This document shows, piece after piece, positions 10,679 through 26,630 of a stretch of 64,000 nt of DNA. The notes under the pieces were generated by a model. That model saw only the letters and a list, made by a program, of their open reading frames with translations. It searched no databases and had not been told where the DNA came from. Numbering within the stretch: position 1 is the stretch's first letter; each line of letters opens with the position of its first letter. This DNA comes from Candidatus Margulisiibacteriota bacterium (lineage in GTDB: Bacteria > Margulisbacteria > WOR-1 > O2-12-FULL-45-9): contig JAYEOW010000040.1 in the NCBI GenBank assembly GCA_034723395.1, positions 8,424 through 72,423 of the forward strand. The letters are read 5' to 3'. Both the position numbers and the translations under genes were made by a program.

Positions 10679-10805
10679 TAAAGATAGTTATCGAAGGATC
10701 AGGATGCTGGAAAGAATATTAATAAATGAGAATTCAGATGAAGTTAAGAGACTTTTAGCGATGGTTGGGTTGATGCAGTTTGCTTTAAGGAAGAACGAAT
10801 TATAG
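10656..10805 (+). CDS. Small hypothetical protein (49 aa)
   Basis: ATG with GAGGA SD; MKKCYQYNKDSYRRIRMLE...RKNEL; fills the gap to the convergent gene. Confidence 0.4.
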   Translation: MKKCYQYNKDSYRRIRMLERILINENSDEVKRLLAMVGLMQFALRKNEL

Positions 10806-12146
10806 CTTTATCTTCTCCCCATGTACGATCTTGTTAATCACAAGGCCGGAGAGAAGCTTGGGATAGAAATAAGTCGACTTATGGGGCATTTTTTCGAGCT
10901 TGCTGGCGATCGAGGTGATCTCTTCGAGCTTGGTCGGATTTAGCAAAAAGGCGACCTGATAATCGTGATTATCAACCCGATCGATTGCCTCTTCGAGTGC
11001 TTTAACATATGAGACCTTATCTTCGGTTTCGTTAGCAATTCCAAGGATACGATCAAATACCGCATAGTGAAGAACCGTTACATCGAGGTTTTTCCATGCT
11101 TTCGGCTTTTCCTCCTCGACCATCTCTTCTACAACGTATTCATCTTTTAAGGTCAACAGGTAATATTTGTTATTCCCGAGATACATGCCATAAGCGTGTT
11201 GATCGAGACCTTTCTTTGTTAGATCTTTTAATAGTTTCTTCTGCACCCTTTTTGCAGATGTTTTGGTCGCCTTGTATAATTTCACGTCAAAGAAGCGTTC
11301 GAGCTCTTTTTCAAAACGGTTCGGATCAAAATAGGGTAGATTGTACAGCACCCGATGGATTGGGAGCACGGCTAAACCTTTGTCCTCGATAGGGGTAAAA
11401 TACATCAATATGTGATTATAAGCTTCTTCTTCGGAGAATTTGGTGTTTTTTGTCTTTAGTTCATTCTTAAAACGGAGGGCTGCTTCATAGCGATGGTGGC
11501 CGTCGGCGATAAAGACAGTCTTGTCGCGCATTTCTTTAATGATCTTGGTGATAGCGGGTTTCTTGTCTATTTTCCAGAGGCGGTGTTTTACTTTATCTTT
11601 ATCTTTATCTGTTACATCAATCAGCGGTTTTCTTCGCATGTATTTCTTGAAAATCTTTAAAAGTTTACTTTTTGGATCGCTATAGACCGAGAAGATCGAC
11701 TCAAGATTTGAGGAGGTTGTCCGCATCAGCTGGAGCCGGTCGAGCTTTGCCCGGGAATAAGTCTCTTCATGAGGAAATACCTTGCCGCGTCCCATATCTT
11801 CGAGCCTTAAGAGGGCGAAAAATCCGAGCCGGGTAAACTTTTTACCTTCTAGGCTAAAGCGCTGTTCGTAAATATAAAAAGAGGGTTTTTCATCCTTTAT
11901 CAGGATGCGGTGGCGGAGCCATCCTTCAAGAAAAGCGGCCGAGCGGATATATTTGTTATTATATTCCCCATCACTGGAAAATTCTTTGCCCAGGATAAGC
12001 CGGATGAAATTGAAATCGTGCAGATTATAAAAATCCTCCTGCATTTTATCATCGATAACATCATAGGGTGGGGTAAAAAGATTGTCGAGCTTTTTAAATT
12101 TACCTTTATTATAAAGAATTCCTTCGAAAGGAAATAATTTAACCAT
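10800..12146 (-). CDS. DUF1015 family protein
   Basis: PPYDVI, PHEET, IADGHHRYE, KSTYFYPKL.SGL. Confidence 0.9.
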   Translation of the reverse strand: MVKLFPFEGILYNKGKFKKLDNLFTPPYDVIDDKMQEDFYNLHDFNFIRLILGKEFSSDGEYNNKYIRSAAFLEGWLRHRILIKDEKPSFYIYEQRFSLEGKKFTRLGFFALLRLEDMGRGKVFPHEETYSRAKLDRLQLMRTTSSNLESIFSVYSDPKSKLLKIFKKYMRRKPLIDVTDKDKDKVKHRLWKIDKKPAITKIIKEMRDKTVFIADGHHRYEAALRFKNELKTKNTKFSEEEAYNHILMYFTPIEDKGLAVLPIHRVLYNLPYFDPNRFEKELERFFDVKLYKATKTSAKRVQKKLLKDLTKKGLDQHAYGMYLGNNKYYLLTLKDEYVVEEMVEEEKPKAWKNLDVTVLHYAVFDRILGIANETEDKVSYVKALEEAIDRVDNHDYQVAFLLNPTKLEEITSIASKLEKMPHKSTYFYPKLLSGLVINKIVHGEKIKL

Positions 12147-12203
12147 GGCGATCGCATTATAACATCACTTTAATTTCGCGTCAAATTTGCTATAATACGG
12201 CAG

Positions 12204-14513
12204 ATGAGAACCCGAAAACCGGTAATTTTTGTTTTAATAAGCTTATTTTTCATCCTTCCCGGCTTTGCCAAGTTCATCGATGTGCCGAAAGGGCACAAGA
12301 GCGCTCCCGCCATCCAGAAGCTTCTCGATTTCGGCATAATAAAACTTTCTCAGGAGGGGAAATTTAAGGGAAAAACCCCTGTGACCATGTATCAAATGAC
12401 GGTAATAATGGACGAGATCCTGGACAAATCGGGAAAGAGAAAGGCCCTGGAGGCGGTGCCGATCGAAGATTTTTACGTCAATGTACCAGAAAAACATTAT
12501 GCTTATAGGGCGGTCAGGGATATGGTTAAAATGGGACTTTTTGTTGTTCCTGATTCAAAGGTCTTTCCCGGGGAGATCAAAGTTAACCGCGCAACATTTT
12601 ATTCCTACATGGCGGCCTTTTTAGAGAGGTTGGAGGGGAAGGCCTTGGCAAAGGCGGCTGCGAATAAAGGATATTCGGACCTTTCAAAGGGTCACGCGGC
12701 CTATCCTTATGTGCAAAAACTGATTGGTGCCGGTCTTCTTGGCGGGAAGGGAAAATTCAACGAGAATATGCTGGTTAGCCGTTATGAGATGGCCTCCTTT
12801 ATCGATAAGATCGTTGATTATTACTTAAAACTTAAGGTCGCGGGGAGGGTGGGGGACCAAAGCGGATATATTGATATTCTAAAAAGCAATTACGCCTTCA
12901 ATTCAATTAATGAGCTGATTGAGATCGGAGTATTGAAGCCGAGGGATGGGGAGAAGTTTTTTGGAAAGACCTTGATCAACCGTTATTTTCTGGCGGACCT
13001 GACCTTAAGGATCCTCGAAAAAGTTGTCTTGCAGGAAGATGTTAAGCCTGCCCCCTTTGCCAGGTCTTATAAGGATGTCCCGACGAGCCATTTTGCGTAT
13101 AAGTCGATCCAAAAGCTGATAACTTTAGGAGTCATCCCGCCGGGGAACCGGGCTGAGCTTTTCTACGGAGAGAGGAAGATCAGCCGTTATCAGATGGCAT
13201 ATTTTGCTTTTTCGGCGGTCGAGTATGTGCTGCGCGATACGCTTATCTTTCAACCGGCGCACTCTTCGCTCGGTTATTACGATGTCCCGACCGATTATTT
13301 TGTCTTTGACACGATACAAAAACTGGTATGGCTGGATGTTTTGGAAGGCGGGTTGAAAAATAAGTATAACGGCAACGAATATATCGACCGGTATGAGCTC
13401 TGCTCTTTCTCGGTGGAGCTGATTGAGGCGGTGTTTGAAAAGATCGAGGAGCTGAAAGAGGAGGTTTATAAAAAACCAGAGGGGTTTGGTTTTGAGACCT
13501 ATCTGAACACACAGCTTAATTTTTCCCAGGTTTCAGGCGTGACGGAAGCAAGCGCGTATCAGCAGGCCGATATCATGGTCGACCGGGAGATAAGGAAGGA
13601 CCTTTCGGCTTTTATTTCTTTCTCATCACGCTATAATTTCGGGGATACGACGACTTTAAGCTCCCCTTTCCTGGAACAGGCTTATCTTTTGTTTGAGGAG
13701 GGGCCTTTTGTTGCCCAGGTTGGCCGCGCCGATTATTATCAGGGGTATACCCCGTTTGGGAACAGTATTTATGTAGACACAAATTCGATCGACCAGGTCC
13801 TGGCAAATTATGACCATCATCTGTTCAACCTTAATGCGATCGCCGGTAAGTTTGTTTATTTTGGAGATATAAGCCTGGATTCTAATTTTGGCACAATAGC
13901 TTTTTCTCCCAAACTTCCGCCAACGCTAAGCTGGCTGGAGCTTTCGTTGGGGACGAGTATTGTTACCGATCTTCCTGATCCGACCTTTAGTTATACGCTG
14001 CCGACCAGGGTGGTGCAGGGCTACGGAGGGCTGAGGATAAACCTGTTAAATGTTTTTGAATTTACCGCGGAAACCGCTAACCTGACCTTTAGCGATCCTT
14101 CTGTTTTTTCGATAATCGGGACATCTGCCAATAAAGATACAACAGCGACCCAATATTCACTTTCATATTACTCGGAAGATTTTGGTTATGTGGTATCGCT
14201 GGGCTATCAGGCGATCGGGGACGATTATTTCCTGAGCGTTTTCAACGACCCGACCTCGATCCCGGGGACCGCCCGGAATACCGAAAGCTGGCTGTTCAGG
14301 ACCAGGCATTATCCTTCATCTGCCCAAATGATCGGGGCGGATCTCTCTTATGTCTCAACCGACGGTTATAATAATAAGACAGGATTGTCGGGTTACTATA
14401 ACTTTGAAGTGCTCGAAGATGCTTATCTGAATTTCGAGCTGAGCAAGATCATGGATAATCTCTCTGCGCAGGATGAAATTAGGGCTTCCTGCTCATTTTC
14501 GCTTTCGTTCTAG
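12204..14513 (+). CDS. Secreted protein with six SLH repeats and a probable C-terminal outer-membrane beta-barrel
   Basis: Signal peptide; six (F/Y)xD(V/L/I)..(H/N/Y)....I..L...G-type repeats; aromatic beta-rich C-terminus ending SFSLSF. Confidence 0.8.
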   Translation: MRTRKPVIFVLISLFFILPGFAKFIDVPKGHKSAPAIQKLLDFGIIKLSQEGKFKGKTPVTMYQMTVIMDEILDKSGKRKALEAVPIEDFYVNVPEKHYAYRAVRDMVKMGLFVVPDSKVFPGEIKVNRATFYSYMAAFLERLEGKALAKAAANKGYSDLSKGHAAYPYVQKLIGAGLLGGKGKFNENMLVSRYEMASFIDKIVDYYLKLKVAGRVGDQSGYIDILKSNYAFNSINELIEIGVLKPRDGEKFFGKTLINRYFLADLTLRILEKVVLQEDVKPAPFARSYKDVPTSHFAYKSIQKLITLGVIPPGNRAELFYGERKISRYQMAYFAFSAVEYVLRDTLIFQPAHSSLGYYDVPTDYFVFDTIQKLVWLDVLEGGLKNKYNGNEYIDRYELCSFSVELIEAVFEKIEELKEEVYKKPEGFGFETYLNTQLNFSQVSGVTEASAYQQADIMVDREIRKDLSAFISFSSRYNFGDTTTLSSPFLEQAYLLFEEGPFVAQVGRADYYQGYTPFGNSIYVDTNSIDQVLANYDHHLFNLNAIAGKFVYFGDISLDSNFGTIAFSPKLPPTLSWLELSLGTSIVTDLPDPTFSYTLPTRVVQGYGGLRINLLNVFEFTAETANLTFSDPSVFSIIGTSANKDTTATQYSLSYYSEDFGYVVSLGYQAIGDDYFLSVFNDPTSIPGTARNTESWLFRTRHYPSSAQMIGADLSYVSTDGYNNKTGLSGYYNFEVLEDAYLNFELSKIMDNLSAQDEIRASCSFSLSF

Positions 14514-14873
14514 GGCGCGGTTGACTAGATCGTATATAACTTCCATCATAAAAGGTTTGCTGACGTATTCCATGGCTCCTAATTCGACTGCCCGGACCTT
14601 GCTTTTTTCCGAAGCGTAGCCGGTAACGATGCAGCATTCGGTCGAAGGGCTTAATTCCTTTATCTTTGCCAGAATATCCAATCCGATATCGCGGCCGTTA
14701 AAGCGGAGATCGATAAAGGCGATATCAAATTTATCTTTCTGGACGGCAGAGGCGGCGTCTTCGAGGTTCATAGCCGTCTTGACCGCATACTCCTTTACCT
14801 CAAGGATCATTTTTAGCGATTCGAGGACCGCTAATTCGTCGTCAACTACCAGGCAATTTGTTTTATCGGCCAT
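14493..14873 (-). CDS. Single-domain response regulator (CheY-like)
   Basis: VVDDE, FIDL, VTGY, YVSKPF. Confidence 0.92.
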   Translation of the reverse strand: MADKTNCLVVDDELAVLESLKMILEVKEYAVKTAMNLEDAASAVQKDKFDIAFIDLRFNGRDIGLDILAKIKELSPSTECCIVTGYASEKSKVRAVELGAMEYVSKPFMMEVIYDLVNRALERKRK

Positions 14874-14883
14874 TGGTCTCTCC

Positions 14884-15096
14884 TTATTTTTTCGATAACA
14901 GAAGCTCGAACACGTTTATCTGTTCGATGACCATGCGGCCTCCGTCAGGGCCGGGTTGGGTCAGTTCTATTTTAAACTGCCAGAGCCAAATTACAACCCC
15001 CACCAGTATAGCAAAAACGGCCAGGGTTGCGATCTCGACGATTCGGGCCTGCCTGGCCATCTCCTGCTGGGTTATCGCTTTAAATATATTTTTCAT
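14884..15096 (-). CDS. Small single-pass membrane protein
   Basis: One hydrophobic helix; start overlaps the ABC gene stop (ATGA). Confidence 0.7.
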   Translation of the reverse strand: MKNIFKAITQQEMARQARIVEIATLAVFAILVGVVIWLWQFKIELTQPGPDGGRMVIEQINVFELLLSKK

Positions 15097-16832
15097 TCTT
15101 CACCTGCATGCGCTTGATAGAATTTGTAGAATTCGCCCTTCTTTTCGAGCAGCTTTTCGAACGTCCCTTGTTCCGTTATCCGGTTCTTGTGGATCACGTA
15201 GATCTTATCCGCGTTCTTAAGGGTGGGGATGCGATGAGAGATTATGATCACCGTCTTATCTTTGCAGCGCCTTTTTAGATTTTCATAAACCTTGGCTTCG
15301 ACCAAGCTGTCGAGGGCGGAGGTCGCTTCGTCCAATACCAGGATCTTTACGTCGCGGTAGAGGGCGCGGGCGATTGCCAGCCTTTGCTCCTGCCCGCCCG
15401 AGAGGCCGATCCCCCCTTCGCCGATCCGGGTATCGTAGCCATTGGCGCAGCCCATGATAAAATCGTGGATCTCCGCGTCCTTGGCGGCCTGGACCATGTT
15501 CTTTTCGTTTATCTCTTTGCATCCGTACTGGAGGTTCTCGCGGATCGTCCCCGAAAAAATTATCACATCCTGGGAGACGATCGAGATATAGGCGCGGAGG
15601 GTCATCAGCGAGACCTGTTTGAGGTCGTATTTATCGACATAGATGTGGCCTTCGCTCGGATCTAAAAAGCGGAGGATCAGATCGAGGATCGTGCTTTTTC
15701 CGGCGCCGCTCGCTCCGGCTACCGCGGTGATCTGCCCCGGATTCGCGGTGAGGCTGATGTTTTTCAGAATATACTCTTTCGTATCCGCGTAGTGGAAGCT
15801 GACTTTATCGAATTTGATCTTCCCTTCGATATAATAAAGGACAAAGGTTTTAACGTCCTGGTAAGCTTCGGGCTCAACGTCCATGATCTCGTTGACGCGG
15901 GTGATCGAGACAAAACTGCGCGCCAGTGATTTATATACTTCGCCGAAATCCATAAAGGGCTGGTGGATCTGCCCCAGGTAGACCAGTATCGCCATGATCT
16001 CTCCAATCGTGATATGGCCGGTGATCACGCGGTAGCCGGCATACCAGGCGATAAAGCTGGTCCAGAGGGTAATCATAGTCGAGTCGAGAAAGCTGTTGAA
16101 CAGGCCGGTAAACAGATTTTCCCGCACCAGCATAAAGACCGATCTTAGTTTATCGATCAGCCTCCCGGTTTCATAAACTTCCTGGTTAAAGGATTTGATC
16201 GTCTTAATGTTGCCCATCTTTTCCTGATAAAAGGAATAGATCTCCGATTCTCTTTTTTGGGATTTTTCCTGGATATCCTCAAAGCGTTCGGCAAAGATCC
16301 TGGTCTCGATAAAATAGAGCGGGATGCCGAGCAGGGCGAGGAGGGTGAGATTCCAGTCGATCATGATGCAGATGATAAATAAGGCGATCAGCTGCAGGGC
16401 GGTCTTGACCAGGACCGGGATCGTTTCGGCCACTGTATCCACGATTACGTCAATGTCGTCAGTTACCCTTACCATCATATCGCCCACCTGTTTTTCCTTA
16501 TGCACGCTCATCGGCAGGCGGAGGACGCGGGTAAAGAATTTCTGGCGCAGGTCGATCGAGAGGGTCTGGTGGATAAAGGTGTCGAGGTAGCTGGTTATGC
16601 CGGAGAAAAAGGTATCAAAGAGAAAGATCACGATGCCAAAGAGGACCAAGAAGGTCAATAAGTAGAGATCCCGGTTTGGATAAGCGTAATCGATCAAAAT
16701 TTTTGTGATCAGCGGGGCGGCCATGCTAAAGATGACCGAGAGGCCGACCGCCAGCAGGGACAGTGAGCTTTTATCCCAATAGGGGAGGAGGAGCTTAAAA
16801 TAGCTTCCGAAGATCTTCAACCTTTCATGCAT
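15093..16832 (-). CDS. ABC exporter, fused TMD-NBD (no peptidase domain)
   Basis: N-terminal TM domain, GASGAGKS, LSGGQ, VLDEATSALD, SHR. Confidence 0.95.
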   Translation of the reverse strand: MHERLKIFGSYFKLLLPYWDKSSLSLLAVGLSVIFSMAAPLITKILIDYAYPNRDLYLLTFLVLFGIVIFLFDTFFSGITSYLDTFIHQTLSIDLRQKFFTRVLRLPMSVHKEKQVGDMMVRVTDDIDVIVDTVAETIPVLVKTALQLIALFIICIMIDWNLTLLALLGIPLYFIETRIFAERFEDIQEKSQKRESEIYSFYQEKMGNIKTIKSFNQEVYETGRLIDKLRSVFMLVRENLFTGLFNSFLDSTMITLWTSFIAWYAGYRVITGHITIGEIMAILVYLGQIHQPFMDFGEVYKSLARSFVSITRVNEIMDVEPEAYQDVKTFVLYYIEGKIKFDKVSFHYADTKEYILKNISLTANPGQITAVAGASGAGKSTILDLILRFLDPSEGHIYVDKYDLKQVSLMTLRAYISIVSQDVIIFSGTIRENLQYGCKEINEKNMVQAAKDAEIHDFIMGCANGYDTRIGEGGIGLSGGQEQRLAIARALYRDVKILVLDEATSALDSLVEAKVYENLKRRCKDKTVIIISHRIPTLKNADKIYVIHKNRITEQGTFEKLLEKKGEFYKFYQAHAGEE

Positions 16833-16909
16833 TAATTATAGTATATAACTTGAAGAAGAATCGGGCAAGCTGACGGATTTATGATATAATACTTGTGGAG
16901 GTGTTTATT

Positions 16910-17077
16910 ATGGCAATGAGTAAAAGACACAGCAAAAGCAGCAGGCTTTCAGGTATTAAAAAGACACGAGCAAAACCAAAGATACAAATGGATGATGATT
17001 TGACCCGAACATTTATAAAGAAAACTGAAGGGAAACTACAAAAAAGAGTGCCGGGAACAAAATGGAAAGTGGCTTGA
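16910..17077 (+). CDS. 55-aa Lys/Arg-rich peptide A (candidate radical-SAM substrate)
   Basis: Extended -10 TGATATAAT (16882-16890), SD GGAGGT, ATG 16910; directly upstream of a radical SAM gene. Confidence 0.7.
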   Translation: MAMSKRHSKSSRLSGIKKTRAKPKIQMDDDLTRTFIKKTEGKLQKRVPGTKWKVA

Positions 17078-17094
17078 TAATATAGCTGTATTTT

Positions 17095-18745
17095 ATGCAA
17101 AAAAAAATGTCCCGCACCTAAGCAGTACCACCGTGCTCTGGCTAAAGAAATTATTAGTAATTTATCCTCCCTTATTGAGCTTGATTATTTATCTAAGCGC
17201 GATTCTTCCCCCGATTCATGTGAGATAATTTATCAGCCGGAATTTCTTTATCGAACCGCCGACCCAAGGATTGATTTTATTAAACGCCTTTTAGAAATCA
17301 CTTTCTCTGATTCCGATCTCCCGACTAATCCGTCATCTTTTAGTTTGAAGCGCCTTAAGGACTGGATGGTCGGAATTACAGCTGACGATCTTATTGAACA
17401 GATGAGCTGGGCGTGCAAAGCGGATTGTGTTTTTTGTTATCAGAAAGGGAGCCCCCCTTTTATGCGCGTGAAGATGCGCATGTCTAAGGAAGAGATCAAG
17501 ACACGGCTTAAGTATTATAATGGGAAAAAGGGGCTTACATGGTGTACTCCTTATGAAAATGACGAAGTGTTGAACAATCCATTCATTGAGAATGTGCTGA
17601 AGCAGATCCGGCGAAAAGACAAAGAGATGCTGCGGATCATTACTAATGGGGTCGCTCTTACGCCACAAATGATCGCCAAACTAAAAAAAGCTATGCCGCT
17701 ATTCATTGACATATCGCTAAACAGCACAAATCCTGAGATACGCAGAAAATTGATGCGTGACTCATCCCCGGAAATCGCGATCCAGAGCATCCCCTTGCTT
17801 AGAAAGCACAAAATTCCTTTTGTAGTTAAGATCGTTGCTTGGCCGGGAGTCCCCTTTTCAGATATTGAAAAAACGATCAAGTATGCAGATAAATACGATG
17901 CTTTCCGCGTAGAAATTGGAAGCCCGGGAGTAACGCGTTACCTTCCGGATGTTTCTTTTGATTATAAGCGGCACTGGAAGAGGGTAGTTAAGTTTGTGAA
18001 TTCAATAAAGCGGAAATATAACATACCTATTGTGTCTGATATTTATATTGATAAGAATAATTATAGACGGTGGGATATTCCAGTTGTACAGGGAACCATA
18101 AAGCATTCACCGGCCTATACTCATGGAGTTAAGCCCGGAGACGTTATTGAAGAAGTGAATGGACAGCTTGTGGATTCCCTTTTCGGGGTTTTTAGGGAAT
18201 TGTTGAAGCGGCGGAAGGCGCGGTTAAAGATTCGCCGCGGCGGTAAAACTTTATTTTTTAACCTAAAAGAGAAAAAAAAGTATCCGTATCTATTTGACGG
18301 TCAAAGGATGCGGGGCCCTTTCGGGATAAGATTTAAATTAGCCAAAGAACTCATGCTTTCGGATGACGACATCATTGATATTAAGCGATTTGCTAACATT
18401 CATCGGGCGAAAAGAGTATTAGTTTTAACCTCGGCCAGGGCCTATTTCTTGATCAAATATAAGATGGAGAAGTTGAAACTTTTTAAAAGTAGTAATGCCC
18501 GGATAAAACTGGCGATCGCTGAAAATAAAATGTACGGCGGTAACACCAAGTGCGCGAATTTACTGGTGGTAGATGATTATATTCATGCCGTGAAAAAGCA
18601 CAAGAAGGAATTTAAGCCGGACCTGGTGGTTATTCCTTCGAGCCCCTTTAATGCCTGGGAGCGGGATGTGGTGGGGCGGGTGAACCTCGATATCGAGAGA
18701 GAGACAAAGGTCCCCGTAGAGTTTGTTTACAACGAAATACTCTAA
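17095..18745 (+). CDS. Radical SAM protein with PDZ-like and C-terminal DUF512-like domains; 5' end irregular
   Basis: CKADCVFC, TNG, GVKPGDVIEEVNG (PDZ-like), N..YGGN....LLVVDD (DUF512-like). Frame open from 17081; ATG 17095 is offset by one base at an A9 run; first in-frame canonical start is TTG 17345. Confidence 0.85.
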
Positions 18746-18982
18746 TTACTTATAAAGCTTATTGATCTTCACGCTATCCAAAAAATGAAACCCATCCACC
18801 TTCACGTCTTCTCCCTTATAAGTCAGTGCCACAATATCCATGGTTTCTTTTAGCAGGTCTTTGACGAAATCTTTAAAAGGATCCTTGCTGCGCCGTTTCT
18901 TTTTGGGGATATCCAGCTTCCAGCGTAGAATAAAGTCGCCGTTTTCGTCAAGGTTAGGATTCGTTTGTTTTTTATTTTTCAT
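18746..18982 (-). CDS. 78-aa protein, possibly the isolated N-terminal piece of a paralogous radical SAM gene
   Basis: SD AAGGAG and ATG 18982; DPFKDFVKDLLKET resembles DPRIDFIKRLLEIT in the N-terminal extension of 17095-18745. Confidence 0.55.
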   Translation of the reverse strand: MKNKKQTNPNLDENGDFILRWKLDIPKKKRRSKDPFKDFVKDLLKETMDIVALTYKGEDVKVDGFHFLDSVKINKLYK

Positions 18983-18995
18983 GATGTTTCTCCTT

Positions 18996-19577
18996 TTACG
19001 ATAAAGGTTCAACCCGACTATTATAAACAAATTCAACCGGAATGCCTATTTCGCGTTCGATGTCCAGATTATTTCTGCCGATTATATCTCTGCCCCACAA
19101 GTTAAAAGGAGAGGAGGGAAGAATGATCAGGTCTGGATTGAACTTTTTGGCAGCTTGTTTTATATTCCGAATGAAATCTTCAACGACCAGAAGGTCCCCC
19201 GAGTTGATAGTCCCTCCGAAAAAATAGTTCTTTGCCGAGATCACACGCAGGTTAAGCTGGTATTTTTTTAAAGTGTGTTTTATTAAGGGAGCCACTCTCG
19301 GCGCGGCGTCAATATTATTAATGAGAAAATCTCTAATTGTTTTTAATTCACTGTTTTTGTATTTCCTATTTATCTTTTTTGTTGATTGTAAATAATATAT
19401 CCTTTTTATATATTTTGAAATATTTTCTGGTCTTAGGACATAATAAAAAAACTCAAGGCCAAGGTTTTCTTGAACTACGTCAACTTTATGCTTGTGTAAA
19501 TATGCATAAAGCTTTGCAGTTCCCAATGGTAGATTAAAAGATAAACTACCCGGTGGGGTAAGAAGTAAAATATCCAT
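18996..19577 (-). pseudogene. Chimeric ORF: start of a B12-binding radical SAM protein joined to a DUF512-like C-terminus
   Basis: MDILLLTPP....LPLG.A.L.AYL start; C-terminal about 100 aa clearly paralogous to the C-terminus of 17095-18745 (PDL...PSSPFN.W.RD..GR.NLDIERE...PVEFVYN); no CxxxCxxC. Confidence 0.7.
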
Positions 19578-19710
19578 TATATTACCAGTAATAATATCAT
19601 AGGCGGGTTTGTTTATGAAATTGCGGAAAAGTTATGTGATGAATAATGAAGCAGAATATGCGGGTCGTGGAGCCCTCCCCAACATCAAAAAGCCCCTGAA
19701 AGTGTGCTTT

Positions 19711-20715
19711 TTATTCAATAAAACACAAAGCGGAGCGATTTAAATTATTTGGAATTTTATATGGATCCTTAAAAAGGACGCACTGGGCGTTATCTGGAGC
19801 AAAAAAGGTGTTGTGTAGTTCATAGGTCCTTTGCTTGCAGCCGCCAAGACATTTTTTATTGGCTTTACAGTAGTGACATTCACTAATATTATTTGAGGTT
19901 GATCTTCTTATTTCTTTCATGACCGGATGGTTTTTAAATATTTTTGTAAAATTATCTTTTCTTATATTTCCCATAACCTTATTTCTCATCGGCATGCAGG
20001 GGACGATATCGCCGTTAAACAATATCGCGATAAATTCATAGCCAACGCCGCATGCGGTTCCCCTTGCTCTAGATGTTATATCTAATCCTTCCGGTTCGGA
20101 TATTTTGTGCATACAATCTTTATAATCTTTTAGCTTGGGGTAGAGTTTTTTCCCCGCTTTTCCGCTGGGATTTATCAGGCTTATCCCGGCGGTAATATTG
20201 AAATGCTGGCAAAAATCGACAATATCCTGGATTTCTTTAACGTTATTTTTCATAACAATTGTTCTGACCACAACGTTAAAGCCTTGTTTTTTACATAGTA
20301 AAATCGCGTCTATTGCTTTTTTAAACGAACCCTTTTTGCCTCTGATAGCATCATGTGTTTTAGCATTAGCTCCGTCGAGGCTAATTTGAATGGTATCGAT
20401 GTTAATTTTTTTAAATCTTTCAATTGCCCGCTTATCAACTAGTGTGCCATTGGTCAAAAGATGGATTTGCAGCCCCTTCTGTGAAGCGTAGGCGGCAATT
20501 TTGTAAAAACGGGGATGTAAAAGAGGCTCTCCGCCGGATAAAATCACTTTTTTGGCCTTGTTCTTTGCTGTGGTGTCGAGAATATTAAATATTTCTTTTA
20601 AGGATAATTCTTTTGAAAATAAACTGCCATCCGCAAAGCAATGTATGCAATTTAAATTGCACCGTTTAGTTATTTCTAAATATAGCGAATCTAAATGCAA
20701 AAGATTATTGCTCAA
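19711..20715 (-). CDS. Radical SAM/SPASM domain protein
   Basis: CNLNCIHC, SGGEPLL, QISLDG; SPASM cysteines CGVG...GDIVPC...CHYC.....C.GGC...C. Confidence 0.93.
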   Translation of the reverse strand: MSNNLLHLDSLYLEITKRCNLNCIHCFADGSLFSKELSLKEIFNILDTTAKNKAKKVILSGGEPLLHPRFYKIAAYASQKGLQIHLLTNGTLVDKRAIERFKKINIDTIQISLDGANAKTHDAIRGKKGSFKKAIDAILLCKKQGFNVVVRTIVMKNNVKEIQDIVDFCQHFNITAGISLINPSGKAGKKLYPKLKDYKDCMHKISEPEGLDITSRARGTACGVGYEFIAILFNGDIVPCMPMRNKVMGNIRKDNFTKIFKNHPVMKEIRRSTSNNISECHYCKANKKCLGGCKQRTYELHNTFFAPDNAQCVLFKDPYKIPNNLNRSALCFIE

Positions 20716-20743
20716 GAGATTAGGTCTTTTTAGCTGGTCAATC

Positions 20744-20911
20744 CTAGTCGGCGATCATCCCAGGGAATATTTTCTTTCTTGTTCTCATTCCAGGAGAGGC
20801 CTTTAATTTTTTTATCTCTTTGAGAATTTTGGTTGTGCTTGAGGATACTTCGGTCCGGACCTCTTTTTTGATGAGTTTCTTTAAGTCTGATAATTTTAGG
20901 GTTTCTTTCAT
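20744..20911 (-). CDS. 55-aa Lys-rich peptide B (candidate SPASM substrate)
   Basis: Hand translation MKETLKLSDLKKLIKKEVRTEVSSSTTKILKEIKKLKASPGMRTRKKIFPGMIAD; SD AAGGGGG; TTGCTT-17-TATACT promoter; not in the ORF track. Confidence 0.7.
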   Translation of the reverse strand: MKETLKLSDLKKLIKKEVRTEVSSSTTKILKEIKKLKASPGMRTRKKIFPGMIAD

Positions 20912-21008
20912 GCTTAATAACCCCCTTTTTTTGTAGTATACATCAACCTTTCTTCCGAAGCAATACGTCTTTTTATTTTGTAGGATGTTTTATGATAACA
21001 TAAAAAAT

Positions 21009-21137
21009 GTGACAGCAATAAACAACCCCCAACAAAAACTCTGTTCCGACATCAAAAAGTTCCTGGATGTCTACAAGGTCCTTTCCGCCGACGGCAAAGC
21101 CCAGTTCGAAGCCCAGATGGCGGGAGAGGTTTATTAA
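21009..21137 (+). repeat. Copy 1: truncated 5' half of the 24120-24338 gene (42-aa ORF)
   Basis: GTG...NNPQQKLCSDIKKFLDVYKVLSADGKAQFEAQMAGEVY*. Confidence 0.9.
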
Positions 21138-21212
21138 CTTGACATTTTTGATGGCTTTTGTTAATGTACATCTGTCAAACAGGACAAAATTGTCTTATTT
21201 GGAGGATGATTT

Positions 21213-22013
21213 ATGCTTAAAGATGAGTTAACCGCTAAAGCGCATGAGGAGGGCCTGCCGCTAAAAATCCTTGAAAAAGAGGCTTTGCAAATTTACATTT
21301 TAAGCGAGTTGTTCGCTCTGCCGGAATCGACCCGGCTGACTTTCCAGGGCGGGACCTGCCTGCGCCTGGTCTATAACGGGGCGCGTTACTCAGAAGACCT
21401 GGATTTTGTAACCTCTGCTGACAACAATAATATCGATCAGATCATCAATAATTTGTCCAAAGCGCTTGTCCGGCTGGAGCCGCTCTTCGGCGGGGAAATT
21501 ATTACAAAAAAGCAAAAGGTATCTCCCACTTTTTGCCGCTTCAGAATTCATAACCGGAAAGAAAATATTCACGAATCTTTTTTTGTCAGCCTGGAATTTG
21601 GCCGGTATCCGGCTTATACCTTAAATGTCGTTCCCTTGCGTCCGCAAAAAAAGCTTCCGGGATTGCCGCTGACCCTGGTCCGAGCGGAAAAGCCCGAAGA
21701 GATCCTGGCCGACAAATTGTGCGCTATTGCCGGCCGGCCCTTTTGCAAAGGGCGCGATTATTTTGATCTTTGGCTGTTAAAGCAGCAGGGGATTACGCTT
21801 GACACAAACTTGCTGGGGAAAAAGCTTAAAGATTATTCTATCCCCGCGGATAACCTGGCTCGCGGACTTAACCTTGCTTCAGCCAAAAGCATTAAAAATG
21901 AGATGGAAAGATTTTTGCCGTTAAAATACCGGCGCCAGTTCGAAAACGACGGCTATGCCGGCCTGCTGCAACAAGCCCGGTCAATCATTGAAGAGGGGCT
22001 GCAAGCGCTATGA
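21213..22013 (+). CDS. abiEii: AbiEii-family nucleotidyltransferase toxin (type IV TA)
   Basis: FQGGTCLRLVY...RYSEDLDF, EILADKL.A, KGRDYFDLW. Confidence 0.92.
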   Translation: MLKDELTAKAHEEGLPLKILEKEALQIYILSELFALPESTRLTFQGGTCLRLVYNGARYSEDLDFVTSADNNNIDQIINNLSKALVRLEPLFGGEIITKKQKVSPTFCRFRIHNRKENIHESFFVSLEFGRYPAYTLNVVPLRPQKKLPGLPLTLVRAEKPEEILADKLCAIAGRPFCKGRDYFDLWLLKQQGITLDTNLLGKKLKDYSIPADNLARGLNLASAKSIKNEMERFLPLKYRRQFENDGYAGLLQQARSIIEEGLQAL

Positions 22014-22603
22014 AAAAATATTTTACCTTCTCCTCCTGGCTGACGCTCCTGCAAAAACTGGGCAGGGAAAATCAAAAGATCCTCTCCCCCCGGACCCTGC
22101 AAAGGGCCAGCGGATTGGGCAGCCAGGCGATCTCAAAAGCCATTCAGCGCCTGGTCCGGCGCGGGGACCTGATCAAACTTTATAAAGGGGCCTACGCCAA
22201 TAAATATTCTCCGCCTTCGCTTGAAGAAGTGGCCATGTTTTACGGCAAGCCCTGTTATATTTCTTTTGAGAGCGCGCTGGAAGATCGGGGCATTATCTCG
22301 CAGGCGCCGCAGGTGCTTACCTGCGCGGCCACGCGCAAGCTAAAAAAATTAAAGACGCCGCTGGGTGAGATCGTATTCCATAGGATCCACCCGCGCTTAT
22401 TTAGTAGTTTCGAAAATGATAAGGGGATTCTCCGCGCCACCGCCGAGAAGGCTTTTCTGGATTATTTATATATCAATCTCAAAAATGAAAAACAGATCCC
22501 TGCGCTGGACGAGTTTGACATGGGGCAATTAGATAACAAGAAGACTAAAAAGCTGGCAAAGATCTTTCCCCAAAGCGTCAGGCGCCGCCTACTTTTGGTC
22601 TAA
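22010..22603 (+). CDS. AbiEi-like antitoxin / transcriptional regulator
   Basis: N-terminal HTH-like region, L.KG.Y, YISFESAL...GII.Q, ATAEKAFLDYLY; ATGA-coupled to the toxin. Confidence 0.85.
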   Translation: MKKYFTFSSWLTLLQKLGRENQKILSPRTLQRASGLGSQAISKAIQRLVRRGDLIKLYKGAYANKYSPPSLEEVAMFYGKPCYISFESALEDRGIISQAPQVLTCAATRKLKKLKTPLGEIVFHRIHPRLFSSFENDKGILRATAEKAFLDYLYINLKNEKQIPALDEFDMGQLDNKKTKKLAKIFPQSVRRRLLLV

Positions 22604-22631
22604 CGGCTCATTTTATGCTAAAATTCAACCG

Positions 22632-22793
22632 ATGACTGAGCAAAACCCGCAAGAAAAACTTCTAAACGATGTAAAACACTTCCTCGAGGTCTACAAAGTC
22701 CTTTCCCCCGATGGCAAAGCCCAATTCGAAGGCCAAATGGCCGGGTCGGTTTATGCTATTAAAATGTTCATTGACAATGAAGACTATATATGA
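22632..22793 (+). repeat. Copy 2: truncated 5' half of the 24120-24338 gene (53-aa ORF; homology ends near 22750)
   Basis: MTEQNPQEKLLNDVKHFLEVYKVLSPDGKAQFEGQMAGSVY then an unrelated tail. Confidence 0.9.
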
Positions 22794-22827
22794 TAAGTTT
22801 TCATTAGCAGTGAATGGAGGTGGATTT

Positions 22828-24096
22828 ATGGATAGAGCATTATTAAAAGAGATAGTTTTAGAGCAACGGGAAGTTATAAAAAATAAGGATCTGGGGATAG
22901 AAAGGGAAAAGCTTGATTTAATTGAAGGATCTATAAAGCTTCCACACGCTATCGTTATTTCCGGGATCAGGCGCGTGGGGAAGTCAACCCTGCTTGCCCA
23001 AATTATGAGTAAATTCTATAAATATGATGCTTATTATCTTAACTTTGAGGATGAGCGTTTAATGGACTTTAAGGTTTCGGATTTTAATACCCTTTATGAG
23101 ATATTTGTGGAGCTTTTTGGGGAAAAACAGGTTTTTTTCTTTGATGAAATTCAAAATGTGAAGGAGTGGGAGGCGTTTGTCCGGCGTATGTATGACCGGA
23201 AATTTAAGTTTTTTATTACCGGCTCAAATGCCTCGCTTTTAAGTAAAGAACTGGGGACTAAATTGACGGGAAGATTTGTGCCGGTCGAGCTTTTTCCCTT
23301 TTCGTTCAGGGAATATATGAGATTTAAAAAATATTCTTTACCTGATAAGGCTCTCATGCTTACTAAAGAAAGAGGAAAGATAAAACGCTTTTTTAATGGA
23401 TACTTAAAAGAGGGGGGGATGCCGGAATATCTAAAATATAAGGACCTGGATATTTTAAGGAGAATTTATGATGATATATTATATCGTGATGTTGTTGCCA
23501 GATATAGGATTAAGGAGATAAAAAATCTCAGGGAAATGTCCCTTTATTTTTTGAGTAATCTTTCTGCTTTGTTTTCTTATAATAAACTTAAACAGTATCT
23601 TAATTTGGGGAGCATAAATACAGTAAAGAGTTTTGCTGAGTATCTTCAAAATACCTATATTCTTTTTGTGATAAATATTTTTTCCTTTTCTTTAAAACAA
23701 CAGTTTATTGCGCCAAAGAAAATATATTGTGTGGATAATGCCCTGGCGAACGCAATTGCCTTTAAATTTTCGGAAAATAGGGGTAAGTTTTTGGAAAATG
23801 TTGTATTTGTAGAGCTTAAGAGAAGGGGCTCTGAAATTTATTATCATAAAACTGCTAAAGGACTTGAGGTTGATTTTCTGGTAAAAAAGGGAAGAAAGGT
23901 TGAGAAGCTAATTCAGGTAACCCTGGGGATGGGGAAAACCGGCGTTAAGGAGCGGGAATTAAACGCGCTTCTTTCGGCGTTGGAAGAACTTGATGTGAAA
24001 GAGGGGATGATTTTGACGGAAGAAGAGGAAAAAGAAATTAAATTAGGCGGAAAGAAGATAACTGTTAAGCCGGTATATAAATGGCTGTTAGAGTAA
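22828..24096 (+). CDS. AAA+ ATPase (AAA_14) with DUF4143/nuclease-like C-terminus
   Basis: SD GGAGGT and ATG 22828; GIRRVGKST, FFDEIQ, TGSNASLL, GGMPE, KKIY.VD, EN.V, EVDF, IQV; AT-rich. Confidence 0.9.
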   Translation: MDRALLKEIVLEQREVIKNKDLGIEREKLDLIEGSIKLPHAIVISGIRRVGKSTLLAQIMSKFYKYDAYYLNFEDERLMDFKVSDFNTLYEIFVELFGEKQVFFFDEIQNVKEWEAFVRRMYDRKFKFFITGSNASLLSKELGTKLTGRFVPVELFPFSFREYMRFKKYSLPDKALMLTKERGKIKRFFNGYLKEGGMPEYLKYKDLDILRRIYDDILYRDVVARYRIKEIKNLREMSLYFLSNLSALFSYNKLKQYLNLGSINTVKSFAEYLQNTYILFVINIFSFSLKQQFIAPKKIYCVDNALANAIAFKFSENRGKFLENVVFVELKRRGSEIYYHKTAKGLEVDFLVKKGRKVEKLIQVTLGMGKTGVKERELNALLSALEELDVKEGMILTEEEEKEIKLGGKKITVKPVYKWLLE

Positions 24097-24119
24097 GTAT
24101 TATAGGGGAAGATAGTATA

Positions 24120-24338
24120 ATGAATAACCCACAACAAAGACTTTTAAACGATGTAAAAAAGTTCTTAGAGGTCTACAAAGTTCTCTCTCCGGATGGCAAA
24201 GCGCAATTCGAAGGCCAGATGGCGGGATCAATAAAGGACCAGGACGATAAGACCAGGAAGTTATATCATGCTCTTCTGCAAGCGGCCAAAGACGGCAAAG
24301 ATGTAGAAGCTGCTATCCAGGAGATGGGGAAGGGCTAA
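24120..24338 (+). CDS. 72-aa hypothetical protein, the complete copy (copy 3) of the repeated gene
   Basis: MNNPQQRLLNDVKKFLEVYKVLSPDGKAQFEGQMAGSIKDQDDKTRKLYHALLQAAKDG...; converges on parB. Confidence 0.85.
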   Translation: MNNPQQRLLNDVKKFLEVYKVLSPDGKAQFEGQMAGSIKDQDDKTRKLYHALLQAAKDGKDVEAAIQEMGKG

Positions 24339-25225
24339 ACCCGGGATAACGTCTTTTTCCCGCGGAAGATAATTTCTAGTACCCGTTCGAGGTCCTCTTT
24401 GCTGAAGTAATTGATCTCGATCCGCCCTTTTTGCGGAGTCCCCAGTATTTTTACTTTTGTTCCGAGAAATGTTGTTAATCTTTCAACCAGGGCGTTTAAT
24501 TCCGCATTTTTTGTAAAAGCGCGTTTGCGTCCGCCTTTCCTGGCTTTTTGTTTTTCACTTTTTCCAGAAACTAAAATTTCCACGTCGCGAACATTTAATT
24601 TGCTGGAGATGATCTGTTTCCAGGCTTCAAGCTGTTTTAGCTGGTCAGAAATCGCCAAAAGCGCCCGCGCGTGCCCAACACTAATTTCTTCTTTGCGGAG
24701 ACTTTGTTTGATCTTATCCGGTAAAGTAAGGACGCGAAGCATATTGGTAACGGTGGACCTGTTCTTCCCCACCTTTTTAGCGACTTGTTCCTGAGTGATC
24801 TTAAATTCTTTGATCAGGAGGGCGTAACCCTCGGCTTCATCCATCGGATTGAGGTCTTCGCGCTGGAGATTTTCGATCAAGGCGATCTCGAGCGATTGCT
24901 CGTCGGTAAAATCCTTTATGATTGACGGGACCAGGGTGAGCCCGGCAAGTTTAGCCGCTCTCCACCTGCGTTCACCGGCGACCAGTTCGTATCTCCCTGC
25001 CCGCATCCGGGTCAGGATCGGTTCGATCACTCCCTGCTCTTTGATCGAATCCGAAAGTTCTTTTAATGCATCCTTGGGAAATTCGGTCCTTGGCTGACGC
25101 GGATTTGGATATATTTTACCGATATCGATATTTACGATCGTCCTCCCGCCGGCAAAGATCGCCTTCTTTGGGATCAGCGCGCTCAATCCTTTACCCAAAC
25201 CTCTTTTTTTAGAATTGTCCATCAT
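24335..25225 (-). CDS. parB: Chromosome partitioning protein ParB
   Basis: GLGKGLSALI, NPRQPR, AGERRWRA, ENLQREDLNP, HTH. Confidence 0.97.
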   Translation of the reverse strand: MMDNSKKRGLGKGLSALIPKKAIFAGGRTIVNIDIGKIYPNPRQPRTEFPKDALKELSDSIKEQGVIEPILTRMRAGRYELVAGERRWRAAKLAGLTLVPSIIKDFTDEQSLEIALIENLQREDLNPMDEAEGYALLIKEFKITQEQVAKKVGKNRSTVTNMLRVLTLPDKIKQSLRKEEISVGHARALLAISDQLKQLEAWKQIISSKLNVRDVEILVSGKSEKQKARKGGRKRAFTKNAELNALVERLTTFLGTKVKILGTPQKGRIEINYFSKEDLERVLEIIFRGKKTLSRV

Positions 25226-25976
25226 CTAATACCTCCCGACAAAGATTTTCGTAGGCCTGCGCCCCTTTTGATCCCGGATCATAAAAGATAATTGGCTGGC
25301 CAAAACTGGGCGCCTCGGCCAAGCGGATATTTCTCGGAATAACTGATTTAAAAACCTTGCTGCCAAAATATTTACGGGTCTCTTCGGCAACTTGGGCAGA
25401 AAGTAAGGTTCTCGGATCGTACATGGTAAGAACAATCCCGCGGATCTTTAGCCCGGGATTCAACCCTTCCCGGACCAATTCTAAGGTATGGGTTAACTGG
25501 CTAATTCCCTCGAGTGCGTAGTATTCGCACTGGATCGGGATAATAACTTCATCTGCCGCAGTCAGGGAATTTACGGTCAGAAGCGATAGCGAAGGAGGGC
25601 AATCGATAATAACTATATCATAATCATCTTTAACTGATGCTAAAGCATCTTTTAAGCGGGTCTCTCGCGGCTCCATGTTTATAAGTTCAACCTCTGCTCC
25701 GGCGAGTTGCGGAGTAGAAGGGAGAGAATCTAAATTTGCGATCGGGCTTTTGATAATTACATCCTTGGCGGGAACGCTGCTGATCAATACATCATACAGG
25801 CACTGTTTAATGGTTGAACGGTCGATGCCTATGCCTACTGTGGCATTACTTTGCGGATCAAAATCGACCAGTAAGATCTTCTTGCCGAAAGTTGCTAAGT
25901 AAGATGCCAGATTTACGGTGGTGGTGGTCTTTCCGACTCCGCCTTTTTGGTTTACGATCGCGTAGGAGATGCCCAT
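25209..25976 (-). CDS. parA: ParA/Soj ATPase
   Basis: NQKGGVGKTTT, DPQSN, IDCPPSL, QCEYYALEG, EAPSFG. Confidence 0.97.
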   Translation of the reverse strand: MGISYAIVNQKGGVGKTTTTVNLASYLATFGKKILLVDFDPQSNATVGIGIDRSTIKQCLYDVLISSVPAKDVIIKSPIANLDSLPSTPQLAGAEVELINMEPRETRLKDALASVKDDYDIVIIDCPPSLSLLTVNSLTAADEVIIPIQCEYYALEGISQLTHTLELVREGLNPGLKIRGIVLTMYDPRTLLSAQVAEETRKYFGSKVFKSVIPRNIRLAEAPSFGQPIIFYDPGSKGAQAYENLCREVLDDGQF

Positions 25977-25991
25977 TGCCCGCTTATTATA

Positions 25992-26630
25992 TCATAGCGG
26001 TCTTTTTTTGGCCATTCCGGGGTGGCGGGGGTATTTTTCGGGAGTAGGGGATATTTTTTCGATAATAATTAGTGAGCGGATGATCTCTGAATCTGGTAGT
26101 TTTACTTTTTTCATCTCTTTTATTTTTCCACCAAGAATTTTGATTGCGTTCTCCGCTGATTGAATCTCGTCTTCGATCTTTTCTTCCTTGTAAGCGACAA
26201 AAATCCCTCCAACTTTTACAAAGGGGAGGCATAGCTCGGAAAGGACGTTTAATTTCGCGACTGCGCGGGAGAGGGAGATATCATATTGCTCCCGTTTATC
26301 TTTAACAATTTCCTCAGCTCTTCCCCAGATGATTTCCACATCTTTTAAGTTTAATGTTGAAACAACATGCCTTAGAAATTCAACTTTCTTGCGGGTCGCT
26401 TCAACTAAGGCCAACTGAATTTGAGGGAATGTTATTTTTAAAGGGATGCCTGGGAAACCAGCCCCGGCGCCAATATCGATGATAGATTGGTCTGTGAGGT
26501 TGACTACTTGAGAAATAGAGAGTGAATCTTCAAAATGTTTTAGCTTTATTTCGTCCGGTTTGGTGATGGAGGTAAGATTAAACTTCCTGTTCCACTTCAG
26601 AAGCTCTTTGAGATAGACTTCAAACATCAA
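25992..26630 (-). CDS. rsmG: 16S rRNA m7G methyltransferase
   Basis: NLTSI, HFEDS, DIGAGAGFPG, SRAVA; synteny with parAB. Confidence 0.96.
   Translation of the reverse strand: MMFEVYLKELLKWNRKFNLTSITKPDEIKLKHFEDSLSISQVVNLTDQSIIDIGAGAGFPGIPLKITFPQIQLALVEATRKKVEFLRHVVSTLNLKDVEIIWGRAEEIVKDKREQYDISLSRAVAKLNVLSELCLPFVKVGGIFVAYKEEKIEDEIQSAENAIKILGGKIKEMKKVKLPDSEIIRSLIIIEKISPTPEKYPRHPGMAKKRPL

Follow-up and report, generated by a model that had tools for sequence, protein, structure and literature searches.

The stretch of DNA analysed here, 64,000 nucleotides of contig JAYEOW010000040.1 (assembly GCA_034723395.1) from a Candidatus Margulisiibacteriota bacterium and termed the window in the following, contains two convergent units in each of which a 55-aa lysine-rich open reading frame (ORF) directly precedes a gene for a radical S-adenosylmethionine (SAM) enzyme. 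In the first unit, located on the plus strand, the ORF for peptide A (16910-17077) is followed by an open frame of 554 codons (17081-18745) for a radical SAM/PDZ/DUF512 enzyme, the subject of this analysis together with its candidate substrate. The second unit, on the minus strand, comprises the ORF for peptide B (20744-20911), the gene for a 334-aa radical SAM/SPASM enzyme (19711-20715), a 193-aa ORF (18996-19577) whose C-terminus resembles DUF512 and the gene for a 78-aa protein of no named family (18746-18982), which by homology represents the same domain as the N-terminal domain of the DUF512 enzyme and is termed the partner. A GGAGG sequence lies 8 nt upstream of the ATG of peptide A and a GGGGG sequence 9 nt upstream of that of peptide B. 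While the initial annotation had placed the two lysine-rich ORFs, their Shine-Dalgarno sequences and the adjoining radical SAM genes correctly, it had overlooked the 78-aa gene and the 193-aa ORF, the latter containing DUF512 only, and likewise that the frame of the DUF512 enzyme extends back to peptide A. A promoter that it had described ahead of each unit was not recovered, as a consensus scan returned 16 sites versus 14.3 expected from shuffled sequences and none of them lay before peptide A or B. An Rfam scan of positions 14000-22000 gave no match at E <= 1, so that a cobalamin riboswitch is absent from this interval. No RNA run containing the stretch was listed and the only DNA run, a brine metagenome, may be the source sample.

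Pfam analysis of the DUF512 enzyme yielded matches to Radical_SAM (PF04055, E = 1.2e-21) and PDZ_6 (PF17820, E = 6e-7) as well as a sub-threshold match to DUF512 (PF04459; 22.3 bits, cut-off 25). With approximate boundaries, the encoded protein consists of an N-terminal partner-like domain (~17108-17380), the radical SAM core (~17399-17950), the PDZ domain (~18083-18280) and a C-terminal cobalamin (Cbl)-type domain (~18398-18736). The three cysteines of the CX3CX2C motif (C112, C116 and C119) do not vary among the 16 sequences aligned, and neither do G338, K341, S343 and P344 of the PDZ domain, where G338 is the glycine of the carboxylate-binding loop in the consensus VIGxIKNSPAY. A profile built from the close group of homologues matched the solved structures 9cg2 (4.4e-16) and 9cg1 (5.9e-7; positions 464-525) and, among PDZ domains, those of RseP and DegP (E = 2e-22, reached with RseP, to 1e-9). 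An AF2 (AlphaFold2) model of the enzyme (pLDDT 81, pTM 0.79) retrieved 9cg1 (E = 5.2e-10), 9cg2 (E = 6.6e-9) and Mmp10 (7qbu, E = 7.5e-7) as its best three Foldseek matches. On the basis of sequence and model, the protein, which has both the cluster motif and the Cbl-type domain, is predicted to belong to the class-2 cobalamin-type radical SAM proteins and to adopt the Mmp10/DUF512 fold. The hydrophobic-Gly-hydrophobic carboxylate-binding loop of its PDZ domain would be a putative site for the binding of a C-terminus.

DUF512 has been described as a cobalamin-binding domain, and some 6,000 DUF512 proteins have lately been reinterpreted as cobalamin-dependent radical SAM enzymes; four of them were reported to bind Cbl, to form methylcobalamin (MeCbl) and to cleave SAM to 5'-deoxyadenosine (PMC11659888, PMC13331322). 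In the available text of these sources, Mmp10 is the only characterized enzyme of this fold and the only one with a known reaction and substrate (PMC11659888, PMC13331322), while the reactions of DUF512 enzymes are referred to as undefined (PMC13331322). Mmp10 (PDB 7QBS/7QBU), the Cbl-dependent radical SAM arginine C-methyltransferase of methyl-coenzyme M reductase (MCR), acts on a protein or peptide substrate according to the available text (PMC11659888) and shares with the enzyme studied here the succession of the core and a C-terminal four-stranded Cbl-type domain. It differs by the lack of a PDZ domain, of a partner-like N-terminal domain and of a free partner, by its archaeal target, MCR, as opposed to a bacterial small ORF, and in sequence, as our enzyme reached 15.3 bits against the NCBIfam Mmp10 model, the cut-off of which is 350. 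The best fold and profile matches, csDUF512 from Clostridium sporogenes (9CG1) and pfDUF512 from Pyrococcus furiosus (9CG2), are 13-17% identical to the enzyme and lack its additional N-terminal domain. The PDZ domain of csDUF512 likewise has a carboxylate-binding loop and has been proposed to hold the C-terminus of an undefined protein (PMC11659888, PMC13331322); in the available description it is N-terminal and completes a shortened barrel, whereas in our enzyme it is located past the radical SAM core and ahead of the Cbl-type domain. A neighboring peptide is not described for csDUF512 or pfDUF512 in the available text.

The way in which translation of the DUF512 enzyme starts is unusual. 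Its frame is open from 17081, directly past the TGA TAA of peptide A, and the first ATG, GTG or TTG in frame is located at 17345. The 52 homologues found in a search of 5.8 billion proteins extend over 88-96% of the 554 codons, with N-termini that align upstream of 17345. Translation could begin at an in-frame ATT at 17090 or, alternatively, at an ATG at 17095, which is shifted by one base relative to the frame and lies just ahead of a run of nine A's (17099-17107); one A fewer in this run would place the ATG in the frame of the enzyme. The same nine A's are present, without insertion or deletion, in a second assembly, possibly derived from the same sample (word depth 16.9 in a Logan contig of run X1). 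Slippage of RNA polymerase occurs on A runs of this length. Peptide A and the enzyme share the same reading frame and are parted by TGA TAA alone, which we regard as a coincidence; read-through of peptide A into the enzyme was considered and rejected in view of these two stops. A comparable situation is encountered on L058, a 164-kb metagenome contig that carries two paralogues of the enzyme. For the second of these, the frame of the N-terminal domain opens inside the end of the upstream peptide gene (L058 10092-10320), contains no ATG, GTG or TTG before 10320 and offers an ATA that overlaps the TAA stop of the peptide. Because the frame in the window lacks a canonical start and begins right past the stop of peptide A, enzyme and peptide may be translated in a coupled manner, and the two independent cases suggest coupled non-canonical initiation instead of an accident. 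Non-AUG re-initiation and slippage are both possible causes. The absence of an ATG, GTG or TTG over 88 codons that the homologues require, together with an ATG misplaced by a single A in a run reproduced in the second assembly, would also fit the view that the locus is a decaying remnant in which a change of one base within the A run abolished the start, a deletion left the 193-aa ORF as its scar and the small ORFs are now without function. Since L058 paralogue 2 shows the same peculiarity in a different sequence setting, we tend to see it as a habit of expression; moreover, the 554-codon frame is free of internal stops and retains every residue that is invariant in the family.

With regard to distribution, the enzyme family occurs in two quite different genomic settings. 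A single-protein query against genome contigs returned nothing, and the loci were obtained with an alignment-based query. Among 40 relatives, a full-length enzyme was found only in G019, a genome from the same order as the organism studied here, the remaining matches being weak and confined to radical SAM cores; a further homologue, P0011, bears the name Margulisiibacteriota. In a tree of 19 sequences the enzyme clusters with P0007, P0008 and P0010 (support 97/96) and with neither of the L058 paralogues. Distant homologues, 33-37% identical over the whole length and of the same domain order, were found at 40 genome loci and at 24 of 28 metagenome loci, the other four of the latter being close; their hosts are metagenome-assembled genomes of Dehalococcoidia, Desulfobacterales, Peptococcaceae and others. 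In this branch the partner is located beside the enzyme or fused to it, and the surroundings are those of acyl-CoA metabolism. When gene families were counted in 41 clustered loci, including the window and G019, the large subunit of an acyl-CoA mutase was present at 22, its B12-binding small subunit at 17, MeaB at 6, CoA-transferase III at 20, enoyl-CoA hydratase at 22, PrpD at 15 and a carboxyltransferase at 9. The mutase large subunits next to distant homologues (L014-L053) end in a conserved ..VFGE[WY].. tail.

Based on these neighborhoods and on the description of DUF512 reactions as undefined in the available text of PMC13331322, the enzyme might be thought to act on a small molecule or cofactor, for example in B12 handling or on an acyl-CoA-type metabolite, and the region would then contain no peptide substrate. 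In the genome under study (97% complete), B12-binding proteins are present, and a mutase (PF01642) was not found, while the control was positive in 8 of 14 genomes, so that the mutase setting of the distant relatives is not applicable here. In addition, none of the metabolic genes listed above is part of the cluster in the window, the PDZ domain is of the RseP/DegP type that binds peptide tails, and Mmp10, the only characterized enzyme of the fold according to the available text of PMC11659888, modifies a protein. We thus regard a small-molecule substrate as quite unlikely.

The partner is the more constant of the two elements that accompany the enzyme. Its identity is 78% to the counterpart in G019 and 80% to that in L058, compared with 42% for the enzymes, and in 26 of the 41 loci it matched by blastp either a separate ORF of about 80 aa that immediately precedes the enzyme or the enzyme's own N-terminal ~70 residues. 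A partner profile searched against 1.84 billion representatives retrieved 346 clusters at E <= 1e-3, of which 172 reached E <= 1e-10; most of the matched proteins are 70-140 aa long, and some of 500-685 aa contain two matched stretches, i.e., a copy in tandem before the N-terminal domain that the enzyme itself carries. The partner has no Pfam family. Its AF2 model (pLDDT 78) gave no match in the PDB at E <= 0.001 with Foldseek, a best Z of 2.4 in a wide VIA-align search and no match of 0.9 or more in the ESM Atlas. Among 146 genomes of the phylum, the partner was found in three, the one studied here, G019 and a third with one weak and broken match. The cassette can be described as a lineage-specific version of a unit with two constant parts, the DUF512 enzyme with its partner-like N-terminal domain and PDZ domain, and a free copy of the 78-aa partner.

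The lysine-rich ORFs constitute the variable component. The initial annotation had considered both peptides unannotated; they are in fact called, unnamed proteins in the public collection (P0205, 53 aa, for peptide A and P0206, 55 aa, for peptide B). Peptide A ends in ..KRVPGTKWKVA and peptide B in ..KASPGMRTRKKIFPGMIAD, and translation confirms that PGM occurs twice in peptide B, which is devoid of cysteine. Neither peptide matched a family in Pfam or NCBIfam, a Pfam search with ten small proteins (E <= 1) yielded sub-threshold coiled-coil noise alone, the two peptides show no detectable similarity to each other (E = 12), and paralogues of peptide A, peptide B or the partner were not found in their own genome. 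A lysine content of at least 18% combined with PG within the last 20 residues, criteria picked post hoc when the peptides had already been seen, is found in 4 of 5,470 ORFs of 40-70 aa genome-wide, including peptides A and B; one of the other two we take, from reading its sequence, to be ribosomal protein L35.

In close, Margulisiibacteriota-type relatives, similar ORFs stand at the same position. A lysine-rich ORF of 40-70 aa within 600 nt upstream was detected for three of seven close enzyme genes, namely the one in the window and both L058 paralogues, versus none of 44 recognizable distant enzyme ORFs. A fourth close case is provided by P0211, the ortholog of P0202, which resides on the same 2,140-bp contig as the enzyme P0004. 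The gene order on L058 is methyltransferase, P0202, enzyme 1, partner, P0203, enzyme 2, U32-family protein, methyltransferase and M29 peptidase; in G019, P0204 (ending in KPGPQKAVNF) adjoins the partner gene and the enzyme is 3 kb away. A U32-family protein, a SAM methyltransferase and an M29 peptidase beside the enzymes of relatives (L013 5816-7552, 7705-8406 and 10179-11180; L058 11825-14553) were noted as a side observation, and for the U32 protein and the methyltransferase only weak matches (E 1e-4 to 2e-6) exist in the genome analysed here. P0204 is related to P0203 (E = 6e-8), and P0202 is 66% identical to P0211, with enzymes that are 62% identical; counted from the alignment, the two peptides agree in 37 of the first 47 positions and in about 3 of the last 14. 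Likewise, P0207 and P0209 are 87% identical (enzymes 77%) and differ mostly in their tails. In this respect the ORFs behave like genuine genes. A conserved front and a variable tail would fit leader and core peptides and equally a helical mini-protein with a loose end. The tail of peptide A, RVPGTKWKVA, resembles that of P0203, RIPGSPKVWP, and P0203 also precedes an enzyme gene; the recurring C-terminal feature is a glycine followed by Phe or Trp a few residues later, a weak, post hoc pattern.

Position and composition of the lysine-rich ORFs, the PDZ domain and the failure to find a mutase in the genome lead us to the reading, held with somewhat less than even confidence, that the DUF512 enzyme modifies the C-terminal tail of a small protein and that no export pathway is involved. 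The initial annotation had suggested a pathway for modification and export of peptides. For the DUF512 unit, the modification half of this proposal is the best reading in light of the fold, the PDZ domain and the frequency of lysine-rich ORFs ahead of close versus distant enzyme genes; the export half is dealt with below. Beyond the gene content, folds, synteny and distribution, which are established here, we propose the following scheme by inference. The enzyme would act on the C-terminal tail of peptide A, encoded just upstream. The helical lysine-rich front of the peptide might serve as a leader gripped by the partner domain or domains, and the PDZ domain might grip its free C-terminus. The pair of B12 and SAM would perform the chemistry, most likely a C-methylation, as Mmp10 and the formation of MeCbl by DUF512 proteins suggest by analogy. 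Translation of the enzyme would be coupled to that of peptide A. A prediction of a complex of enzyme, partner and peptide A scored 0.20 (mark 0.32), which we count as evidence neither way.

A number of observations weigh against modification of the peptide tail. Homology of peptides A and B to the lysine-rich ORFs of relatives is unproven, as only position, composition and the C-terminal Gly/aromatic tail agree: BLAST yields no alignment of peptide A with P0203, peptide B matches P0207 at E = 0.23, and a hidden Markov model of nine peptides from outside the window, applied to 11,882 small ORFs of the genome, places peptide A at rank 44 (E = 38) and peptide B at rank 114 (E = 93). The PG motif that the initial annotation had regarded as shared varies even between orthologs (KPGRFNV vs. 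KKSGFNV). Absence of conserved neighboring peptides from homologous enzymes, named there as the finding that would speak against the proposal, is indeed what the distant majority of the family exhibits, and does not apply to the close subclade; because none of the distant genes has a lysine-rich ORF, the partner domain, and not the peptide, is the family's only universal companion. In G019 and L059, which account for four of the seven close ORFs and effectively for one lineage, the enzyme is preceded by a methyltransferase gene and not by a peptide. ORFs of the P0207 type lie between SLH and regulator genes, away from the enzyme, and since similar lysine-rich ORFs stand between these genes in G005 and G010, two genomes in which no full-length enzyme homolog was found, the ORF type is not tied to the enzyme. 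In line with the initial annotation, neither a recognition element for peptides that ribosomes make and that are modified after translation (RiPPs) nor a protease was recognized (no PF05402 in any protein of the window, no peptidase in the cluster; Pfam, NCBIfam), a search of the genome studied here for the M29 peptidase that the clusters of G019, L058 and L059 contain was negative, and the window yielded neither a leader peptidase nor a dedicated exporter of the kind known from RiPP clusters. Finally, the enzyme itself has no canonical start codon, and part of the cluster may be decaying, the 193-aa ORF resembling a remnant of a fusion.

Several of these points could be accommodated if the 78-aa partner were itself the substrate, a carrier or an obligatory subunit and the lysine-rich ORFs were unrelated lineage-specific proteins or chance ORFs. 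The partner is the only element that is found with the enzyme across phyla (26 of 41 loci, 346 representative clusters), it is far more strongly conserved than the enzyme between the window, G019 and L058, the lysine-rich ORFs extend to G005 and G010, and peptides A and B have no significant similarity to anything. N-terminal fusion of the partner to the enzyme, in many cases as a second copy in tandem, fits an enzyme domain better than a substrate, however, and the lysine-rich ORFs located ahead of enzyme genes are more conserved between organisms than the enzymes and recur in the close group as opposed to the distant one. All in all, we consider this explanation unlikely. Although the window contains no PF05402 and the partner has no clear fold match, a role of the partner in recognition is still compatible with the data.

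Upstream of peptide A and divergent from it, as stated in the initial annotation and borne out by the ORF positions, the minus strand carries genes that Pfam identifies as those for an ABC exporter of 579 aa (15093-16832), a 70-aa membrane protein (14884-15096) and a response regulator (14493-14873). The adjacency of all these genes, an ABC protein of the MsbA/HlyB exporter type and the presence of a PqqD-type recognition domain (PF05402) in some proteins 30-33% identical to the SPASM enzyme would be in line with a classic exported RiPP made from two precursors by two radical SAM enzymes and exported by the divergent ABC protein. A short candidate precursor gene beside an enzyme gene, the arrangement typical of RiPP clusters, is present in both units, peptide A being located 3 nt ahead of the open frame of its enzyme and peptide B 28 nt ahead of the SPASM gene. 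The ABC, 70-aa and regulator genes are, however, kept at 69-75% identity in G005, G010, G011 and G019 (4 of 30 relatives, with an additional match of 33% in G024), and in G005, G010 and G011 no full-length enzyme homolog was found; in G005 and G010, SLH and DUF1015 genes accompany the ABC block in the order seen in the window. Because the block is kept in genomes in which the enzyme was not found and because the ABC protein lacks a C39 peptidase domain, we treat the exporter as a neighboring block and not as evidence for an export pathway, which is left unsupported. Taken together with the lack of a protease and a recognition element in the window and of cysteine in peptide B, by which the commonest SPASM chemistry is excluded, this renders the exported RiPP most improbable.

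Some further features of this block may be mentioned. A block of DUF1015, SLH, response regulator, 70-aa and ABC genes (10800-16832 in the window) is kept in several related genomes (L101, L103, L102, L093 and L059). A lysine-rich ORF of 44-54 aa is located between the SLH and regulator genes in L059, G019, G005 and G010; in the window these two genes overlap end to end with no lysine-rich ORF between them. Judged by the called starts, the orthologous ABC proteins measure 579 aa in the window, 648 aa in L059, where about 70 residues are added at the C-terminus, and 785 aa in G005, where the ORF has an N-terminal extension.

In the second unit, the SPASM enzyme gave Pfam matches to Radical_SAM (6e-34) and SPASM (2.5e-10) and has no N-terminal recognition domain; all its NCBIfam matches remained far below the cut-offs, the best being those to AhbD (174.5/500), StsB (141/625) and PapB (96/340). 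Its nearest public relatives are 42, 39 and 38% identical, and no close relative was found among the 146 genomes of the phylum. The combination of core and SPASM domain in 334 aa with a short ORF 28 nt upstream is reminiscent of the SPASM maturases PqqE, SuiB and MftC of mycofactocin biosynthesis, from which the protein differs by the lack of an N-terminal or separate PqqD-type element, by a peptide B without cysteine or known core motif, by its best NCBIfam score of 174.5 bits against a cut-off of 500 and by its distance from public relatives. As peptide B has no cysteine, thioether formation, the commonest chemistry of SPASM enzymes, is excluded, and with no equivalog-level NCBIfam match either, the unit cannot be assigned to the sactipeptides or ranthipeptides. 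The SPASM enzyme may act on peptide B. The 193-aa ORF, with 24.6 bits just below the Pfam cut-off of 25 for DUF512, is of composite nature: residues 1-115 match the beginning of G019:C26, a radical SAM protein of class B (B12-binding; E = 3e-9), and residues ~59-189 match the Cbl-type domain of the enzyme family with 40-60% identity to its C-termini (blastp). Because of these two resemblances it could be either the fusion scar of a lost paralog or a free Cbl-type domain that possibly serves the SPASM enzyme.

Comparison with L058 indicates how this arrangement may have arisen. gidB, parA (83% identical), parB (73%) and a small gene flank the cassette both in L058 and in the window (24123-26801), and the two cassettes thus occupy the same chromosomal place. 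Proceeding from parB, the window contains peptide B, the SPASM gene, the 193-aa ORF and the partner, whereas L058 contains P0202, enzyme 1 and the partner, such that the 193-aa ORF sits in the slot which in L058 and L085 is taken by an enzyme gene before the partner gene. We propose that the second unit (peptide B, SPASM gene and 193-aa ORF) is a genome-specific remodelling of a slot that houses a second enzyme paralog in a relative. In the window, this place also contains defence genes (20985-24338), AbiEii/AbiEi and an AAA_14/DUF4143 ATPase, among copies of the small gene next to parB, two of which are truncated (21009-21131 and 22632-22751) and one intact (24123-24335). The mixture of two enzyme types in the 193-aa ORF, the adjacent defence genes and gene fragments and the occurrence of the cassette in only 2 of the 146 genomes searched (the one studied here and G019, apart from the single weak and broken match) add to what could be said in favor of a decaying locus. 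Next to the uninterrupted enzyme frame and the parallel case of L058 paralogue 2, an intact partner gene that is 78-80% identical to those of relatives argues against it, and decay of the whole locus appears decidedly improbable.

Returning to modification of the tail of peptide A by the DUF512 enzyme, a more general proposition, which we regard as rather doubtful at present, is that a PDZ-bearing subclade of B12 radical SAM enzymes modifies the free C-terminal tails of lysine-rich mini-proteins, that it holds the leader with a domain of about 75 residues present in fused or free form, and that the enzyme is made solely by ribosomes that have just left the gene of the substrate, through non-AUG re-initiation or slippage on the A run. 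No publication was found that links radical SAM, a PDZ domain and a precursor peptide. The analysis separates the members of the cassette, i.e., the enzyme, the 78-aa partner and the lysine-rich ORF, from a non-member, the ABC exporter, and establishes that one enzyme family resides in two quite different genomic settings. For an enzyme class without known reactions, the cassette supplies a candidate substrate that is small and testable, in a genome in which no mutase was found. If the proposed function is correct, it would provide the first substrate class and the first role of a PDZ domain for DUF512 enzymes.

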